Below, in pieces: positions 5,211 through 64,000 of a DNA stretch of 64,000 nt. The stretch is from Candidatus Acidiferrales bacterium (GTDB lineage Bacteria; Acidobacteriota; Terriglobia; Acidiferrales; UBA7541). The position numbers and the translations under genes were made by a program. The stretch covers positions 1,229 through 65,228 of the forward strand of contig JBOGNK010000175.1 in assembly GCA_050747085.1 (NCBI GenBank), read 5' to 3'. Position 1 is the stretch's first letter. Each line of letters starts with the position of its first letter. The notes beneath the pieces were generated by a model that searched no databases, was not told the origin of the DNA, and saw nothing but the letters and a program-made list of their open reading frames with translations.

Positions 5211-7922
5211 ATGAGTATGCTGACGATGCTACTGGCGAAGGTGCGCGCCATGTTCGGGAAACGGCACGATGAGCGCGAGCTGGACGACGAACTGCGAGCG
5301 CACTTCGAGATGCTCGTCGAGCAGAACGTGCAGCGCGGGATGTCGTTTGATGACGCACGCCGGGGGGCGCGGCTGGAACTTGGCGGCGCGCCACAGATCA
5401 AGGAAGCCGTACACGATCAGCGTGGCGTTCCCTTTCTCGAATCGATCTTTGCTGATATTCGCTACGCGGGCCGTATGCTGCGCAGGTCGCCGGGATTCAC
5501 GACGGTCGCAGTCCTGACTCTTGCACTCGGTATAGGCGCAAATACTGCGATTTTCAGTCTGATCGATGCCGTGATGTTGCGCTACTTGCCTGTGCGACAG
5601 CCGGAGCAGCTCGTGCAGGTCGCCATGTTAACGCCGCGCTTCAGCAACGGTCACCGGACATCCTTTACAAATCCTCTGTGGGAGGCTCTGCGCAATAATC
5701 AGGACGTCTTCTCAGGCGTCTTCGCCTGGGGCGAGAGCCAATTCAACCTGGCACAAGGCGGTGTCGAGCAGGACGCGCGAGGGATTTTTGTCAGTGGCGA
5801 CTACTTCGGGACTCTAGGTGTCAGGCCTGCCGCCGGGCGCCTGTTAAGCGTGAATGACGACAAGCGCGGCTGTGCGGGAACCGCAGTCCTGAGCTACGGT
5901 TTCTGGCAAGCGCATTTCGGCGGGACACCGAAAGTCATTGGCAGCATGCTTCCAATCGCGGGACATCCGTTTCGGATTATCGGGGTATCGGATCCACGAT
6001 TCTTCGGCACGCAAGTTGGGAGCTCGTTCGACGTTGCTGTCCCGATCTGCTCGGAACTCATTCTCAGCGGAAAAGATTCGTCACTCGGTAACCGATCAAG
6101 CTGGTGGTTCCATGTAATCGGCCGGCCGAAGCCCGTTCTGACTACCGATCAAGTCTTGGCTCGTCTCTCGGTGCTTTCTCCGCGGATTTTTGCCGCAACG
6201 GTCCCCTCGAACTGGAATCCTGCGCAAAAAGCAAGCTACATGAATTGGAAATTCGTAACGGCCCCAGCGGCCACCGGCAATTCATCTGTGCGCTCCGGGT
6301 TTGACACGCCGCTCAAAATGCTGATGGCGATCGCGGGACTCGTACTTCTTATCGCGTGCGCGAACATTGCAAGCTTAATGCTGGCCCGGGCAGCTTCGCG
6401 CAGACGGGAAATCGCGGTTCGATTTGCGCTGGGAGCCTCTCGCGTAAGGATTGTTCGCCAACTGCTCACCGAATGCATCGTTTTATCAGTTACGGGCGCA
6501 GCTATCGGAATCATGGTTGCACATTGGAGCGGAGAACTGCTGGTTCGTTATATCTCCACCGAGCACACCAAGATCTATTTGGATCTCACACTGGACGGCC
6601 GCATTCTGGCGTTTACCGGCGCCGTCGCCATTGTCACAGGGCTGCTCTTCGGCGTCCTGCCGGCGCTGCGCTCGACACGACTGTCGTTGGCTGGATCAAT
6701 GAAGGGTGCAGCGATTGAAACGACGTCTAGAGATATGCGGTTTCATTCCGGGTATTGGACGGTGGCCGTTCAGGTCGCTTTGTCTCTCGTACTCGTCATC
6801 ACCGCGGCTCTCTTCATTCGTAGCTTCGCAAAACTGGCAACACTGGATGCCGGCTTCGACCACAACGACGTACTCGTCGCCAATGTTGACACTCATGACG
6901 CGAAATTGTCTCCGCAAGCGAGCGCTTCGTTTTCGGATCAGCTTCTTGTGAGGATTCGCGCTCTTCCCGAGGTGGTCAGCGCAAGCCGATCTGTCGTCAC
7001 GCCGATGAGCAATTCGCAGTGGGATGACTTCATTGTGGTTGAAGGTAAGAATACACCGACGGGCGACGATTCCGATGTCTACATGAACTACGTCACTCCA
7101 GGATACTTTCAAACACTGCGCACTCCACTACTCGAGGGGCGCGATTTCAACGAGCGCGATGCGGATAACACTTTTCGCGCGGTCATAATCAACCAGGCAC
7201 TCGCGCGCAGGTTCTTTCCGGGTGTGGATCCGATCGGCAAAACGATCCGGCGCTACGCCACGTCCACAACTCTTTCAGATCCGATCGAAGTTGTGGGAAT
7301 CGTCGGGAATTCGAAGTATGACTCTTTGCGCGAGGATTTTCCGCCGATTGCGTACTTTCCACTGGCCGAAGTTCCTTTTCCAGTTGAGCGATCAAGCGTA
7401 CTGATACGCACGGCGACGCGACCGTCGGTTCTTGCGAGTAGTGTGGCCCCGATCGTCGTCACTCTAAATCCATCGGTGACGGTCGAGTTCAACACACTTG
7501 CTCAACAGGTGAACGACTCGATCGTCCAGGAACGCCTGCTCGCGAGTCTTTCCGGCTTCTTCGGCGCCCTTGCGCTGCTGATCGCGATGATCGGTCTCTA
7601 CGGTGTTCTGGCATATCTCGTTCTCCAGCGCCAAAAGGAAATCGGCATTCGTATGGCGTTGGGGGCACAACGCACCTCTGTCGTCTGGCTCGTCCTGAGG
7701 GATGTCGCATTAATGCTGGCGATTGGAATTGTTGCAGGCGTTGGCATTGCGTGGGGAACCGGTCGAATTATTCAAGGCCTGCTTTTTGGTTTGGAAGCGC
7801 ACAGCATCGGAACGATTGCTGTCAGCATCGCTTTGCTGGCCGCCGTCGCGTTCTTAGCGAGCTACTTACCCGCGCGAAGAGCCACGCGCGTGGATCCGAT
7901 GACGGCATTGAGGTACGAGTAA
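5211..7922 (+). CDS. ADOP-family MacB-like permease, tandem paralog
   Basis: Same architecture as the upstream gene, ending VDPMTALRYE. Start moved from 5130 to ATG 5211, which lies after the upstream stop at 5193. Confidence 0.9.
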   Translation: MSMLTMLLAKVRAMFGKRHDERELDDELRAHFEMLVEQNVQRGMSFDDARRGARLELGGAPQIKEAVHDQRGVPFLESIFADIRYAGRMLRRSPGFTTVAVLTLALGIGANTAIFSLIDAVMLRYLPVRQPEQLVQVAMLTPRFSNGHRTSFTNPLWEALRNNQDVFSGVFAWGESQFNLAQGGVEQDARGIFVSGDYFGTLGVRPAAGRLLSVNDDKRGCAGTAVLSYGFWQAHFGGTPKVIGSMLPIAGHPFRIIGVSDPRFFGTQVGSSFDVAVPICSELILSGKDSSLGNRSSWWFHVIGRPKPVLTTDQVLARLSVLSPRIFAATVPSNWNPAQKASYMNWKFVTAPAATGNSSVRSGFDTPLKMLMAIAGLVLLIACANIASLMLARAASRRREIAVRFALGASRVRIVRQLLTECIVLSVTGAAIGIMVAHWSGELLVRYISTEHTKIYLDLTLDGRILAFTGAVAIVTGLLFGVLPALRSTRLSLAGSMKGAAIETTSRDMRFHSGYWTVAVQVALSLVLVITAALFIRSFAKLATLDAGFDHNDVLVANVDTHDAKLSPQASASFSDQLLVRIRALPEVVSASRSVVTPMSNSQWDDFIVVEGKNTPTGDDSDVYMNYVTPGYFQTLRTPLLEGRDFNERDADNTFRAVIINQALARRFFPGVDPIGKTIRRYATSTTLSDPIEVVGIVGNSKYDSLREDFPPIAYFPLAEVPFPVERSSVLIRTATRPSVLASSVAPIVVTLNPSVTVEFNTLAQQVNDSIVQERLLASLSGFFGALALLIAMIGLYGVLAYLVLQRQKEIGIRMALGAQRTSVVWLVLRDVALMLAIGIVAGVGIAWGTGRIIQGLLFGLEAHSIGTIAVSIALLAAVAFLASYLPARRATRVDPMTALRYE

Positions 7923-58766: not shown

Positions 58767-59234
58767 TTATGCCCTTTTATGTCGCCGATTCCGCAGCCAA
58801 ATCGATGTTCGGATCGCTTTCCGCATCCACCAGAGTACGAATGCTACCAGGAACCATGCCGCGAGCGCGCCGAGCAGGGTGCTCGTGGTGTGCTGCGTCG
58901 GCAGGAACTGCCAAGCGACAGCGCCAAACACCATGAGCCCAATCGCGCCCATAGCGGCCCCGCGCGCATCGAGCGCAGCAGCCGCCGCAGCGCGGCGATC
59001 GCCTCTCAGTCCAGCGCGTTCCATTTCTTCATCCTCGTGCTTGGCGACCAGCGTCGCAGCCGCGGGAAAAATCGCTGGAAACGCCATGAACAGCCCACCG
59101 AGTCCCGGCCCCCACCCCTTTGCAATCAAGCCTGTAATCACCGTCACAACCCCGCCGAAAAGAAACCGCACGCCGATTTCGCGCCATCGCGTTCTGTGGA
59201 GGCCCCGGGGATCGAACGTGACGCGGATCGGCAT
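58767..59234 (-). CDS. DUF3147-like small polytopic membrane protein
   Basis: RFLFGGVVTVITGLIAKGWGPGLGGLFMAFPAIFPAAATLV. Paralogous to the upstream gene. Confidence 0.5.
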   Translation of the reverse strand: MPIRVTFDPRGLHRTRWREIGVRFLFGGVVTVITGLIAKGWGPGLGGLFMAFPAIFPAAATLVAKHEDEEMERAGLRGDRRAAAAAALDARGAAMGAIGLMVFGAVAWQFLPTQHTTSTLLGALAAWFLVAFVLWWMRKAIRTSIWLRNRRHKRA

Positions 59235-59240
59235 CGTCTG

Positions 59241-59585
59241 CTATCTCAGGAACACGAACCACAGGCCAAGACTCGTGACGACCCACAGAACCAGAAGGGC
59301 CGATGCGGTCGCCAGAGTTTTTGTGCGATAGCGCGCGAGGATCCACGTAACGGCGCAGGCGTACACAAAAAACGCAGCAGCGCCAACGATCATTGAGCGG
59401 GATTCCAGGCTCGCAAAGTGTGTTCCCTGGCGCGCCAGCGTCAGCGATAACGTCGCCAGAGCAACGGAAGGGGCCGCCGCAAATAGTCCTGCGAAACTCC
59501 GCTGCTTAAACAGCCCGCCGAGGACGGAGAAGCCGGAGACAATCGCACCCCCAACCAGGAACCGATAGACGATCTCGTGGAACAA
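59241..59585 (-). CDS. DUF3147-like small polytopic membrane protein
   Basis: YRFLVGGAIVSGFSVLGGLFKQRSFAGLFAAAPSVALATLSL. Confidence 0.5.
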   Translation of the reverse strand: MFHEIVYRFLVGGAIVSGFSVLGGLFKQRSFAGLFAAAPSVALATLSLTLARQGTHFASLESRSMIVGAAAFFVYACAVTWILARYRTKTLATASALLVLWVVTSLGLWFVFLR

Positions 59586-60997: not shown

Positions 60998-62602
60998 TCA
61001 GGCGCTTTGAGTACGAGCGGCACTGGCGACCACGGGAAGTGTCACGTCGATTTGCGTATGGCCCGCTTCCGATGTGATTTCAAGGTTGCCGCCCAGCTCG
61101 CGAACGCGTTCTCGCATGCTCGCGAGCCCAACGCCGCGCGCGGCCCCGTTTGTGCCGGACATTTCGCCGGCGCTCATTCCTTTTCCGTGGTCTTCGATCC
61201 TCAGCCTAAGTTCGTTGCTGTCACAGACGAGCCGTATTCCTGCCGTCGGGCTGCCCGAATGGCGATGAATGTTCGTCAGCCCTTCCTGAACGAGACGGAA
61301 AAGCGACGTTTCCATTTCGGCCGGCAGGCGATTCAAAGCTGCCGGAACCTCGAGGTTTACGCCGATTCCGCTGCGCTCTGAAAACCCCTCGACATACCAC
61401 TGGAGCGCCGAAATCAGCCCGAACTCGTCGAGCAGCGGCGGATGCAGCAGGTAAGAAAGCGTGCGGACGTCGCGCAAGCATTCGTTCGCCATCTCGATGC
61501 TCTCGGTCAGCAGGGCGTGGGCGTCCGGATCGAGCTTCTCGCACGTTCGCTTCAGCTTGGAAAGCGACATCAGCAAAAGGCTGAGGTTCTGACCTTCGCT
61601 GTCGTGCAATTCTCGCGCGATGCGCCGGCGTTCCTGGTCCTGCAGGTTCATCAGGCGAATGGAAAGCTGCCTCAGGTCCTGTTCCGCTCGTTTGCGGTCG
61701 GTGATGTCGCGAGTGACGCAGATGATGCCGCGCAGCTTCCCTGCTTCGTCTCGAAGGGACGTGAGGATCACGTTCGCCCAAAAATGGGAGCCGTCGCCGC
61801 GGAGCCGCCAGCCTTCGGACTCGACGCGGTCTTCCGTGCTGGCGATTTGCAGATCGATTTCCGGCTGCCGGCGTTCCACGTCCGCCTGCTCGTAAAAACC
61901 GGAAAAATGGCGGCCGACGATCTGATTCGCCGTAAACGTGTGGACGCGCTCCGCGCCCGAATCCCACGTCATGACGTTGCCGCTTGGATCGAGCACGAAA
62001 ATCGCGTAATCCCTGATGTTCGACAGCACCAGGCGGTTCCGTTCTTCGTGCTCTGTTAGCGCTCGCTCGGCGAGCACGCGCTCCAATTCCGCGCGCTTTT
62101 GTTGCGACAGGTCTGTCGCTACAAGGCACAGCGCGTCTGTTCCCGAATCATTGAACGGACTAATCGAGAGCTGCGACGGCAGCACCGCCCCGCCCTCTTG
62201 TGGAAGGTCCACTTCGCAACGGATTGCCCCCTTCCCCGCGCGAAGAAGGATTTCCCGGATAGCCGGACGCATTTGTGGAGAGAAGAAATCCACAAAAGAT
62301 TTGCCGATCAGTTTTTCGAGGAGCTGTCCGATCATATTGGCGAACTGCCGATTGCTATAGAGGATCGTCCCGTCGGGCAGAAGAGTCGCGGCGCCCTCGT
62401 TGATCGCTTCCACCATCACGCGGTAGGGATGCTCTGCGCCCTGAAGCGTGTAAATCTGATCGCCTTCGGGCCCGGATACGACGAGCGCGTCTACCTCGCC
62501 TCGCTGAATCGCTCCCAGCGATTCTTCCACCTCGGTGAGGCGGCTCCTGAGACGCTGAATCTCGACCATCCACTTCTTCTTGGCGTTGGGTGATTCAGTC
62601 AT
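60998..62602 (-). CDS. Cytoplasmic PAS-PAS sensor histidine kinase (HisKA_3/NarL-type)
   Basis: Two PAS-like segments, an H-box ARELHDSEGQNL, and HATPase boxes (LVQEGLTNIHRHS, DHGKGM, GVGLASMRERV). Confidence 0.85.
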   Translation of the reverse strand: MTESPNAKKKWMVEIQRLRSRLTEVEESLGAIQRGEVDALVVSGPEGDQIYTLQGAEHPYRVMVEAINEGAATLLPDGTILYSNRQFANMIGQLLEKLIGKSFVDFFSPQMRPAIREILLRAGKGAIRCEVDLPQEGGAVLPSQLSISPFNDSGTDALCLVATDLSQQKRAELERVLAERALTEHEERNRLVLSNIRDYAIFVLDPSGNVMTWDSGAERVHTFTANQIVGRHFSGFYEQADVERRQPEIDLQIASTEDRVESEGWRLRGDGSHFWANVILTSLRDEAGKLRGIICVTRDITDRKRAEQDLRQLSIRLMNLQDQERRRIARELHDSEGQNLSLLLMSLSKLKRTCEKLDPDAHALLTESIEMANECLRDVRTLSYLLHPPLLDEFGLISALQWYVEGFSERSGIGVNLEVPAALNRLPAEMETSLFRLVQEGLTNIHRHSGSPTAGIRLVCDSNELRLRIEDHGKGMSAGEMSGTNGAARGVGLASMRERVRELGGNLEITSEAGHTQIDVTLPVVASAARTQSA

Positions 62603-62616
62603 CGAGTTCCACCGAC

Positions 62617-62955
62617 CTACTCGGGCAAACCGAGCGCGATTATTACTCGGCTGGAGTTCGAGAAGTCACCGACCAGCTTTCTCGACGGCTCCGGTAGTTT
62701 CTTCACCAAAGTCGGAGCTGCAATGATCTGAGCTTCCCGAGCTTGGGCGGGTTGCTGGTAGATATCGATCACGTCGAGCTCGTAATGGTCTTTCAGGTGT
62801 TCCTCGCAGAATTTCTTCACCTTGATCACTGCCGATTTTGCCCGTGGCGTCGAACCCGTGATATAAAGCCGAAGAACGTATCCCGATTCCTTTTTTGTGT
62901 GTCCCCGCTGCTTCTCGGTCTTCCCAGTTCCGCTCTTTTGCACCCGCTTTTTCAT
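62617..62955 (-). CDS. kaiB: KaiB-family protein (second copy, Lys-rich N-terminal extension)
   Basis: YVLRLYITGSTPRAKSAV...APTLVKKLPEPSRKLVGDFS. Start moved to ATG 62955. Confidence 0.85.
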   Translation of the reverse strand: MKKRVQKSGTGKTEKQRGHTKKESGYVLRLYITGSTPRAKSAVIKVKKFCEEHLKDHYELDVIDIYQQPAQAREAQIIAAPTLVKKLPEPSRKLVGDFSNSSRVIIALGLPE

Positions 62956-62963
62956 CCCTGCTC

Positions 62964-63287
62964 CTAAACTGTTTCTTCGAGCGCCAATCCCACTAAGACG
63001 CGTTGTTTGTCGGATAAGTCGCCAATAATCTTCCGTATGGGCTCGGGCATCTGTCGTACCAGGGTGGGTATGGCAAAGATCTGGTTTTCGCGCGCCAGTT
63101 CCGGCTTGCGGGCCAGATCGACGATCTCGATCTTGTACTGTCCCTTGAGCTTTGCTTCGCAAATCGCATTCAAGTTGCTAAGTGCGGCGAGCGATTTCGG
63201 CGTCTGTCCCGCAATGTAGAGGCGCAGAATCCAGTGCTGCCCGTCGCCGTTGCCGTTACCGCTTTTCTTACTCTGCGACTTCTTCAT
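62964..63287 (-). CDS. kaiB: Circadian clock protein KaiB homolog
   Basis: [21 protein letters not shown]...[25 protein letters not shown] overlap with the kaiC stop. Confidence 0.9.
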
Positions 63288-64000
63288 TTCCGTTCCAGGA
63301 CTGGTGTGGATTTGCCGTGCGCCCCGTTCGACGAGCGGCTCTTCGCAAAGGCAAGGCGGTCGGCGCCGCGCTGGTTCCGCGTCGCTTCCACCTCTTCCAG
63401 CATCGACGCCGCTTCCTTCTCGGCAACCTCGTACTCCGCGCGGAGAGCGGTGATCTGCGCCTCAATCGTCTTGCGTTTCGTTTCCAAGGTGAAGCGCTTC
63501 CGTTCCTGCTCGTGCTGCACTCGAAGCTGCTCCGCGCTTTCCTGCGCTTCCTGGATCATTCGAGACGTCCCCGTAAGCACGCCATGCGTCCCCAGGTAGG
63601 CCGGTACCAGCTCGACGCCATGGCTGCTCATTCGGAATTCTCGAACCTGATTCGAATGTGCCATGCCGCGCGACTTGATCACATACATCGCGCGGTTCCG
63701 TTCGCCGTTGGACTCCAGATCGCGTACCAGAAGCCACGTGTCGATCAGCGACGAAATCGCCACATCGCTTGTCTCCGCAGCCGAACTGGCATTGGTCAAA
63801 CTGGTGTACATCGCTGTGATCTGCTTCATCTTCAGAAAATCAATGAATCGCGTCAGCACAGACTTGACCTCCGACTGGTCGCTGGCAGCCGTGATCAGAT
63901 TCGTGACAGGGTCCAAAACCACCGTGTCCGGTTTAAATTCGTCGACGGCCTTATGCAGCCGCACCAAGTGCATTTCCAGGCTGTAGCTCGACGGCCGCCA
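63284..64000 (-). CDS. kaiC: KaiC homolog, C-terminal (CII) part only; N-terminus lies beyond the right window edge
   Basis: ...[30 protein letters not shown]..., [37 protein letters not shown]. The frame stays open to nt 64000. Confidence 0.9.

Follow-up and report, generated by a model that had tools for sequence, protein, structure and literature searches.

Operons of the form kaiC-kaiB-PAS histidine kinase that lack KaiA are known from purple bacteria. The operon of Rhodopseudomonas palustris carries kaiC, kaiB and a gene for a PAS histidine kinase (PAS/HK), is thought to be driven by one promoter and has no KaiA (Ma et al. 2016, PMC4794148); both this operon and that of Rhodobacter sphaeroides are described with a single kaiB (PMC4794148), and the kaiC-kaiB-PAS/HK layout is also given in PMC3164672. 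A Ser-Ser phosphorylation site together with a coiled-coil tail defines the KaiC2 clade (Pitsawong et al. 2023, PMC10076222). The tail links two KaiC hexamers into a dodecamer and keeps the A-loop open, so that autophosphorylation proceeds without KaiA, and R. sphaeroides KaiB binds the post-hydrolysis CI domain and drives dephosphorylation when ATP/ADP falls (PMC10076222). Here we describe an operon of this kind with two kaiB genes, in the order kaiC-kaiB1-kaiB2-PAS histidine kinase, from an acidobacterium. It lies at the end of a 64,000-nucleotide (nt) stretch, hereafter the window, from Candidatus Acidiferrales bacterium (assembly GCA_050747085.1, contig JBOGNK010000175.1, our C175:1229-65228); the contig runs on 8.6 kb beyond the window. 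When the literature was searched for kaiB genes in tandem or duplicate outside cyanobacteria, no more than a single sentence turned up, in a genome report that mentions 'kaiCBB' of Thiodictyon syntrophicum Cad16T (THSYN_19820-19830; PMC5944118). As far as that search found, the kaiC-kaiB-PAS/HK operon is known, but its two-kaiB form is nearly unmentioned and the second KaiB is unstudied.

All four genes lie on the minus strand in the order given above and are co-directional, as read from the table of open reading frames. The stop codon of kaiC and the start codon of kaiB1 overlap as ATGA (63287-63284), kaiB1 and kaiB2 are separated by 8 nt, and kaiB2 and the kinase gene by 14 nt. A first-pass annotation, made from the letters of the window alone, had proposed a KaiA-less kaiC-kaiB-kaiB-PAS kinase operon with this overlap and these gaps; the open reading frames agree with the spacing, and the Pfam domains of the four proteins and the lack of KaiA in the genome confirm the proposal. 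Chance is ruled out by the Pfam E-values together with a gene order that is kept in dozens of unrelated genomes. The annotation had before it only the 3' part of kaiC, and the full gene was recovered from the contig. Directly 5' of kaiC, where a kaiA was looked for, stand a tRNA-Leu gene and then a gene for a major facilitator superfamily (MFS) transporter.

Pfam KaiC matched the partial protein with an E-value of 4e-15 and the full protein in two domains with an E-value of 3.9e-111. The closest solved relative of the full protein was R. sphaeroides KaiC (KaiC-RS, 8DBA; E 1.1e-200, 671 bits, residues 32-586), as compared to about 333 bits for the best cyanobacterial KaiC chains (e.g. 1TF7, 3K0E). 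Walker A motifs were found at 61 (GGAGSGKT) and 302 (GMAGSGKT), and catalytic EE pairs at 92 and 332, so that CI and CII carry one pair each. The phosphosite is a Ser-Ser pair, at the position where the phosphomimetic entry 8FWI carries EE. Thus the catalytic and phosphosite residues, on which the proposal of a working KaiC hung, are present. About 90 residues follow CII and match the coiled-coil tail of KaiC-RS without a gap, up to residue 586, while the alignments to cyanobacterial KaiC end near residue 522; the tail is predicted from this match to form a coiled coil. By its sequence, the KaiC is of KaiC2 type and very close to that of R. sphaeroides, and the likeness to the hourglass operons of purple bacteria that had been pointed out from the window holds good for the Ser-Ser site and the tail. 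The sequence and gene-order traits of a KaiC2-type hourglass, viz. a double-domain KaiC, a Ser-Ser pair, a long tail, an adjacent kaiB, no kaiA and a downstream PAS kinase, were found together. The features of the self-sustained cyanobacterial KaiABC oscillator, i.e. KaiA, a Ser-Thr site and a short KaiC C-terminus with an A-loop tail, were not seen at this locus.

The KaiA family (PF07688) gave no match in the genome, which is 94.3% complete, under conditions in which a Synechococcus positive control was matched, and no KaiA was seen between, downstream or upstream of the operon genes. The genome encodes one double-domain KaiC and exactly two KaiB genes. Neither of the reaction-centre families PF00124 (Photo_RC) and PF00223 (PsaA/PsaB) matched the genome, though their positive controls were matched, and rhodopsin gave no match in a search that was run without a positive control. 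By their labels, the proteins nearest to those of the cassette come from Candidatus Acidoferrales or Acidoferrum metagenome-assembled genomes (MAGs), and the window's genome is probably a Candidatus Acidoferrum. These results bear out what had been presumed from the letters, and support a non-phototrophic acidobacterium as host, as far as absence in a draft genome can show. Since no photosynthesis genes were detected, a day/night swing of ATP/ADP is not to be assumed for this host.

Comparison of the two KaiB proteins revealed 41% identity by BLASTP and 45% (39/87) over the core, so that the earlier estimate of 'about half' was slightly generous. KaiB1 has R. sphaeroides KaiB (KaiB-RS, 8FWJ_M) as its closest solved relative (E 6.9e-33). 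KaiB2 begins with a basic tail of 25 residues, 9 of them Lys or Arg (residues 1-25, 62881-62955), which is disordered in the predicted structure. This extension, noted earlier as Lys-rich, is real and typical of a whole clade of KaiB2 proteins, in which its median length is 25 residues with 8 Lys/Arg against 2 Asp/Glu. In many proteins of this clade the tail carries a motif, (S/T)xxFExA(L/I)K (loci L018, L020, L022, L025, L027, L031, L039, L042, L045, L050, L052, L053 and L058), that could be a short docking peptide; the motif is absent from the tail of the window's KaiB2 and from those of its closest relatives.

In a maximum-likelihood tree of 96 KaiB cores, the proteins encoded at the second position of the pair formed a clade split from the position-1 sequences with full support (Shimodaira-Hasegawa-like approximate likelihood ratio test, SH-aLRT, 100). 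The window's KaiB1 fell in the position-1 clade and its KaiB2 in the position-2 clade, and the groupings within the two clades were roughly parallel; the tree came from a quick search on 86 columns, and its deep nodes are therefore unresolved. In Thermosynechococcus elongatus numbering, the KaiB2 clade has Leu42, Ile47, an invariant Tyr48, Gln49-Gln50, Ile66 and Lys67, and the KaiB1 clade has Ile42, Leu47, Leu or Met48, Lys49-Asn50, Val66 and Arg67. KaiB-RS carries KaiB1-type residues at the diagnostic positions 47, 62, 66 and 67. Mean distances were larger within KaiB2 than within KaiB1 (0.56 versus 0.38), so KaiB2 is the faster-evolving of the two.

Searched with KaiB2 as query, species-representative genomes yielded 46 loci, most of them in the order kaiC-kaiB-kaiB-kinase. 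They came from Acidobacteriota, Nitrospirota, Thermodesulfobacteriota, Myxococcota, Planctomycetota, Verrucomicrobiota, Pseudomonadota, Binatota, Dormiibacterota, Fidelibacterota and archaea of the Methanosarcinales/Methanoperedens. Since this set was ascertained through KaiB2, two independent counts were made. A Pfam KaiB search of 401 Acidobacteriota genomes found 32 above the cut-off, 15 of which, the window's genome included, had a tandem kaiB pair about 350 bp apart. When the N-terminal module of the kinase alone was used as query, six of the seven kinases looked up directly followed kaiC-kaiB-kaiB. Two Acidobacteriota genomes each held two complete kaiC-kaiB-kaiB-kinase cassettes on different contigs (L064 and L068 in G364; L065 and L069 in G231). 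On their sequences, kaiB1 and kaiB2 are thus an old pair of paralogues that travels together across bacterial phyla and archaea, with no local duplication, contrary to the earlier implication that the doubling was peculiar to the window's organism. As the pair is old and widespread and the cassette commonly takes this four-gene form, the arrangement is less unusual than was first assumed. Apart from this, the KaiBs of a 'Candidatus Binatus' MAG (L030) were identical or nearly so to those of Acidobacteriota MAGs (L009/L032), one of them in the window's genus, which reflects either a very recent transfer or a mis-binned contig.

The two proteins were folded with AlphaFold2 (AF2) from clade-restricted alignments of similar depth (40 and 45 sequences), with one prediction per protein. 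The KaiB2 model had a predicted local distance difference test score (pLDDT) of about 95 over residues 26-110 and a thioredoxin-like, fold-switched topology. Its best Foldseek match was Legionella KaiB (4KUN; template modelling, TM, score 0.89, root-mean-square deviation 1.1 Å), its other best matches being KaiC-bound KaiB-RS (8FWJ_M), 5JWR, a fold-switch-stabilised KaiB, KaiB-TV4 and SasA's thioredoxin-like domain; no ground-state KaiB was among its top structural matches. The KaiB1 model was ground-state-like in its C-terminal half. Its top 17 matches were all ground-state KaiB crystals, aligned over 83-95 columns, and fold-switched structures matched it over the N-terminal 54-57 columns only. 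Going by these models, we infer that KaiB1 would be a fold-switcher and KaiB2 would be fixed in the thioredoxin-like fold. Ala107 of the window's KaiB2 falls at the position of the fold-locking G89A change, which locks T. elongatus KaiB in the switched fold; Ala is natural at this position in Legionella KaiB, a protein that crystallises in the thioredoxin-like fold (PMC11665890).

The kinase consists of an N-terminal helix with PAS1, followed by PAS2, HisKA_3 and HATPase_c, and its motifs are intact (H-box ELHD at 331, N-box at 440, G1 at 471, G2 at 490). Only residues ~14-191, which comprise the helix with a GEVDALV motif and PAS1, are conserved across phyla, at 39-47% identity and always at the N-terminus. 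The remainder varies among cassettes in the number of PAS domains, an added GAF domain, HisKA or HisKA_3, the presence or absence of a receiver, and an overall length of ~400 to 1100 residues. Such modular swapping of the other domains marks out the N-terminal part as the input that is specific to Kai. Elsewhere the gene after a cassette's kinase often encodes a single receiver (REC) or REC+GerE, and in two relatives with HisKA_3 kinases (L053, L056) a REC+GerE gene follows. Distance-matrix (mirror-tree) correlations showed that all four parts of the cassette co-vary (r 0.47-0.80). Long open frames of up to 708 residues in other Acidobacteriota, considered as KaiB fusions, turned out to be overlapping frames, L066 excepted. 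There (L066:5433-7880, G073:C15, another acidobacterium), an 815-residue hybrid kinase has an N-terminal KaiB followed by PAS-PAS-HisKA-HATPase-REC, a SasA-like fusion outside cyanobacteria that is without the N-terminal kinase module of the cassette.

We narrowly favour, as somewhat better than an even call, a KaiA-independent KaiBC protein timer of the KaiC2 (R. sphaeroides) type with a two-component output, working as an hourglass or as an energy switch. By analogy with the R. sphaeroides work, KaiC would autophosphorylate at high ATP/ADP, and when ATP/ADP fell KaiB would bind the CI ring, speed up ATP hydrolysis and drive dephosphorylation. KaiB1 would be the slow-binding, fold-switching partner, like KaiB-RS. 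KaiB2, fixed in the thioredoxin-like, KaiC-binding fold and so the equivalent of a free-standing SasA N-terminal domain, would bind CI fast, assist KaiB1 or compete with it, and offer a surface for the N-terminal PAS module of the kinase to read. The kinase would then phosphorylate an unlinked response regulator of NarL/LuxR type. The kinase head probably reads KaiB-decorated KaiC, the direct contact being KaiB2, KaiB1 or KaiC itself. In a soil heterotroph without photosynthesis genes, such a module would report energy state or the time since an energy shift. Precedents exist for parts of this scheme: low doses of the SasA domain or of a fold-locked KaiB help to recruit cyanobacterial KaiB, and high doses compete with it (bioRxiv 10.1101/2020.06.17.158394), and the PAS domains of KidA are reported to bind KaiB (PMC9478674). 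It is possible, though we put it forward tentatively, that KaiB2 is a natural fold-locked KaiB serving as a separate SasA N-domain and that, with the kinase head, it makes up a very widespread and undescribed output and assembly layer of KaiA-free timers. That layer would nucleate or gate the binding of metamorphic KaiB1 and, in bacteria and archaea that are not phototrophic, couple the state of KaiC to interchangeable signalling domains.

Several points weigh against the favoured timer. The AF2 model of KaiB1 is of low confidence (pLDDT 60, TM ~0.55), its C-terminal half being poorly defined, and the drawing of fold switching from shallow alignments with AF2 has reportedly been contested in the literature. 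Hence the suggestion in the first-pass annotation that the KaiBs could be fold specialists gains from the AF2 and Foldseek results, which back one fold-switching and one fixed-fold KaiB, but is held back by the weak KaiB1 model and by that dispute. Ala89 was ruled out as a mark of the KaiB2 clade, as 36 of its 48 members have Gly there. The kinase module is kept even where a cassette has a single type of KaiB, be it KaiB1 (L010, L062) or KaiB2 (L035, L038, L057), so neither KaiB is strictly needed for the link to the kinase. The PAS domains of the kinase showed no LOV motif, nor was a motif for a light or redox cofactor recognised in them. The KaiB domain (PF07689) is absent from the kinase and from the best 120 relatives of its N-terminal module; since its N-terminus is formed by a helix and PAS1 in place of a KaiB domain, the kinase is not a member of the SasA family, though KaiB2 and kinase together may work like SasA. 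No response regulator was found on the contig, and none of the six full-length NarL-type candidates elsewhere in the genome could be assigned to the kinase. With one kinase only and no linked regulator, the idea that the doubled KaiB serves two output branches is not sustained either. Finally, there is only a faint extra signal between KaiB2 and kinase (partial r 0.18, as compared to -0.09 for KaiB1 and kinase); assignment of partners from these partial correlations was dropped, the values being too weak and non-independent.

In a different account, KaiB2 would work chiefly with the kinase and not with KaiC: it would bind the helix-PAS module and dock the kinase on KaiC, as a SasA split in two, and would hardly alter the KaiC cycle. 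The kaiB2 gene always immediately precedes that of the kinase, and its stop codon often overlaps or abuts the kinase start codon. At one locus (L023) kaiB2 and the kinase are retained while neither kaiC nor kaiB1 is present within 6 kb, and in a Methanoperedens MAG (L019), again with no kaiC within 6 kb, the kaiB1 position (5919-6161) holds a broken KaiB remnant spread over two frames, while kaiB2, kinase and receiver gene are intact. The clade-specific residues of KaiB2, too, cluster at and just after strand beta2 (positions 41-48), which in the 2017 KaiB-KaiA and KaiB-CikA structures is reportedly the edge of fold-switched KaiB to which third proteins bind. These observations, like the slightly higher partial correlation, fit a kinase partner. 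However, the KaiB1-only cassettes have the same kinase module, the operons of the two purple bacteria are described with a single kaiB (PMC4794148), no KaiB-kinase fusion was seen among the best 120 relatives of the module, and the distances of KaiB2 track those of KaiC with the kinase controlled for (partial r 0.50). We regard this account as unlikely. It is improbable that both KaiBs regulate KaiC in a largely redundant way, retained for the sake of dosage or of different expression conditions, with no division of labour in fold or partner. Both are complete domains that have most core residues in common, and cassettes with one KaiB of either type exist; but they parted long ago in a strongly supported split, invariant residues set each clade apart, KaiB2 evolves faster, the predicted folds differ, and redundant copies would not be expected to keep a fixed gene order across phyla.

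That the module keeps no time at all, but is a stress or energy-status switch in which KaiC phosphorylation simply tracks ATP/ADP and stress genes are switched on through the kinase, we hold to be rather unlikely. The host has no detectable phototrophy genes, KaiBC of Legionella and KaiC of Pseudomonas have reportedly been linked to stress resistance, and some related cassettes lie beside stress genes. Such evidence from neighbourhoods is anecdotal, and the window's own cassette has an alpha/beta hydrolase and DUF3147 genes for neighbours. This account, moreover, differs from the favoured timer mainly in emphasis, the R. sphaeroides hourglass being itself driven by ATP/ADP (PMC10076222).

The surroundings of the cassette were compared among related genomes. 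An Acidiferrales MAG (L016) is fully syntenic with the locus from a GNAT gene through the cassette to orf306, at 80-95% protein identity. Among 25 sampled genomes of the same genus, KaiB was found in 5, and the tandem pair in 3 of those. Three same-genus genomes keep the series DUF4870-MFS-tRNA-Leu and have other genes after the tRNA in rearranged surroundings, so that the cassette lies in a variable region next to a tRNA gene; a clean insertion site was sought in these three, but an empty one could not be made out, and gain by transfer was not told apart from loss. On the 3' side of the kinase, two adjoining genes for DUF3147 membrane proteins and an alpha/beta hydrolase gene (58767-59585) are syntenic in L016; elsewhere they are no part of the cassette. 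Two related cassettes (L078, L080) have as neighbours genes for HSP20, a universal stress protein (Usp), a BON-domain protein, YflT, hemerythrin, catalase and several NarL-type regulators, which hints at a stress regulon. Elsewhere on the contig, outside the window (L001:10610-11365), a 251-residue secreted-looking protein with repeats of the form NLL(A/N)CE(T/A)GxGxCD...LT..(E/Q) matched no Pfam family above the cut-off. A consensus scan for terminators gave 8 hairpins in the region as compared to 6.6 in shuffled sequence, i.e. no excess, and the counts of a promoter scan were likewise not above those in shuffled sequence. The features of the locus are collected in the Table.

Table. Features of the kaiC-kaiB1-kaiB2-kinase locus; positions are those of the window unless given as window-equivalent (beyond its end) or in the numbering of locus L001.
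Feature	Position	Strand	Basis or remark
kaiC, C-terminal 238 codons in window	63284..64000	minus	5' end outside window
Full kaiC	to window-equivalent 65086 (L001:4513-6315)	minus	573-600 aa, depending on start codon
KaiC phosphosite pair Ser445-Ser446 (SSLID), codons	63749..63754	minus	aligned with S413/S414 of KaiC-RS
KaiC C-terminal extension, ~residues 508-600, predicted coiled coil	63287..63565	minus	alignment to KaiC-RS tail
kaiB1, 107 aa, KaiB-RS type, probably metamorphic	62964..63287	minus	Pfam KaiB, E 3.5e-27
kaiB2, 112 aa counted from ATG	62617..62955	minus	Pfam KaiB, E 4.6e-23
Sensor histidine kinase, 534 aa	60998..62602	minus	Pfam: two PAS, HisKA_3, HATPase_c
Kinase residues 14-191, cassette-specific helix-PAS module	62030..62563	minus	cross-phylum conservation
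Terminator-like hairpin, 39 nt past kinase stop codon	60941..60959	minus	consensus scan, weak evidence
tRNA-Leu, anticodon TAG, between kaiC and MFS gene	window-equivalent 65293-65377 (L001:6522-6606)		just outside window

What is known of KaiA-free timers comes from purple bacteria, for whose operons a single kaiB is described (PMC4794148), whereas the commoner form among the genomes sampled here has two old KaiB paralogues and a kinase with a dedicated N-terminal PAS head. Its carriers include soil heterotrophs and archaea to which a light-driven clock would be of no evident use. Should KaiB2 be of fixed thioredoxin fold and KaiB1 a fold-switcher, the pair would offer a natural system for the question of how fold switching creates delay; the same pair would then inform how a SasA-like module evolved, and what Kai proteins measure in non-phototrophs, energy state or time. 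The copy in the window is a typical and intact member of this family of cassettes, useful within a set rather than unique.

Among the systems described so far, R. sphaeroides KaiBC (8DBA, 8DB3, 8FWI, 8FWJ; PMC10076222) shares with the present locus a KaiC with a Ser-Ser site and a coiled-coil tail, a KaiB close to KaiB1 and the lack of KaiA; the locus differs from it in having a second KaiB between kaiB1 and the kinase, and in a host in which no photosynthesis genes were detected. The R. palustris operon has the same order of kaiC, kaiB and PAS histidine kinase and no KaiA, but one kaiB where there are two here, and it belongs to a phototroph with a kaiC-dependent fitness effect under light/dark cycles (PMC4794148). 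A kaiC-kaiB-kaiB string is reported for Thiodictyon, a purple sulfur bacterium in which a diguanylate cyclase adjoins it, with no analysis of the two KaiBs in that report (PMC5944118); this likeness is one of reported gene order. Legionella pneumophila KaiB (Lpp1115, 4KUN) is the best match to the predicted fold of KaiB2 and shares with it the Ala at 89, at only ~33% sequence identity, and comes likewise from a non-phototrophic host with a stress-linked system, which in the accounts at hand is described with one KaiB and one KaiC. With the cyanobacterial KaiABC and SasA system (5JWQ, 5JWR, 6X61) the locus differs in the lack of KaiA, in a Ser-Ser instead of a Ser-Thr phosphosite and in the long coiled-coil tail of KaiC. 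In contrast to SasA, the KaiB-like module is here a separate protein, and the kinase is of PAS and HisKA_3 type without the SasA architecture. Yet fold-switched KaiB and the SasA domain both superpose with the model of KaiB2, and the logic of SasA heterocooperativity, a fold-locked KaiB-like module beside a metamorphic KaiB and a histidine kinase, would be common to both.

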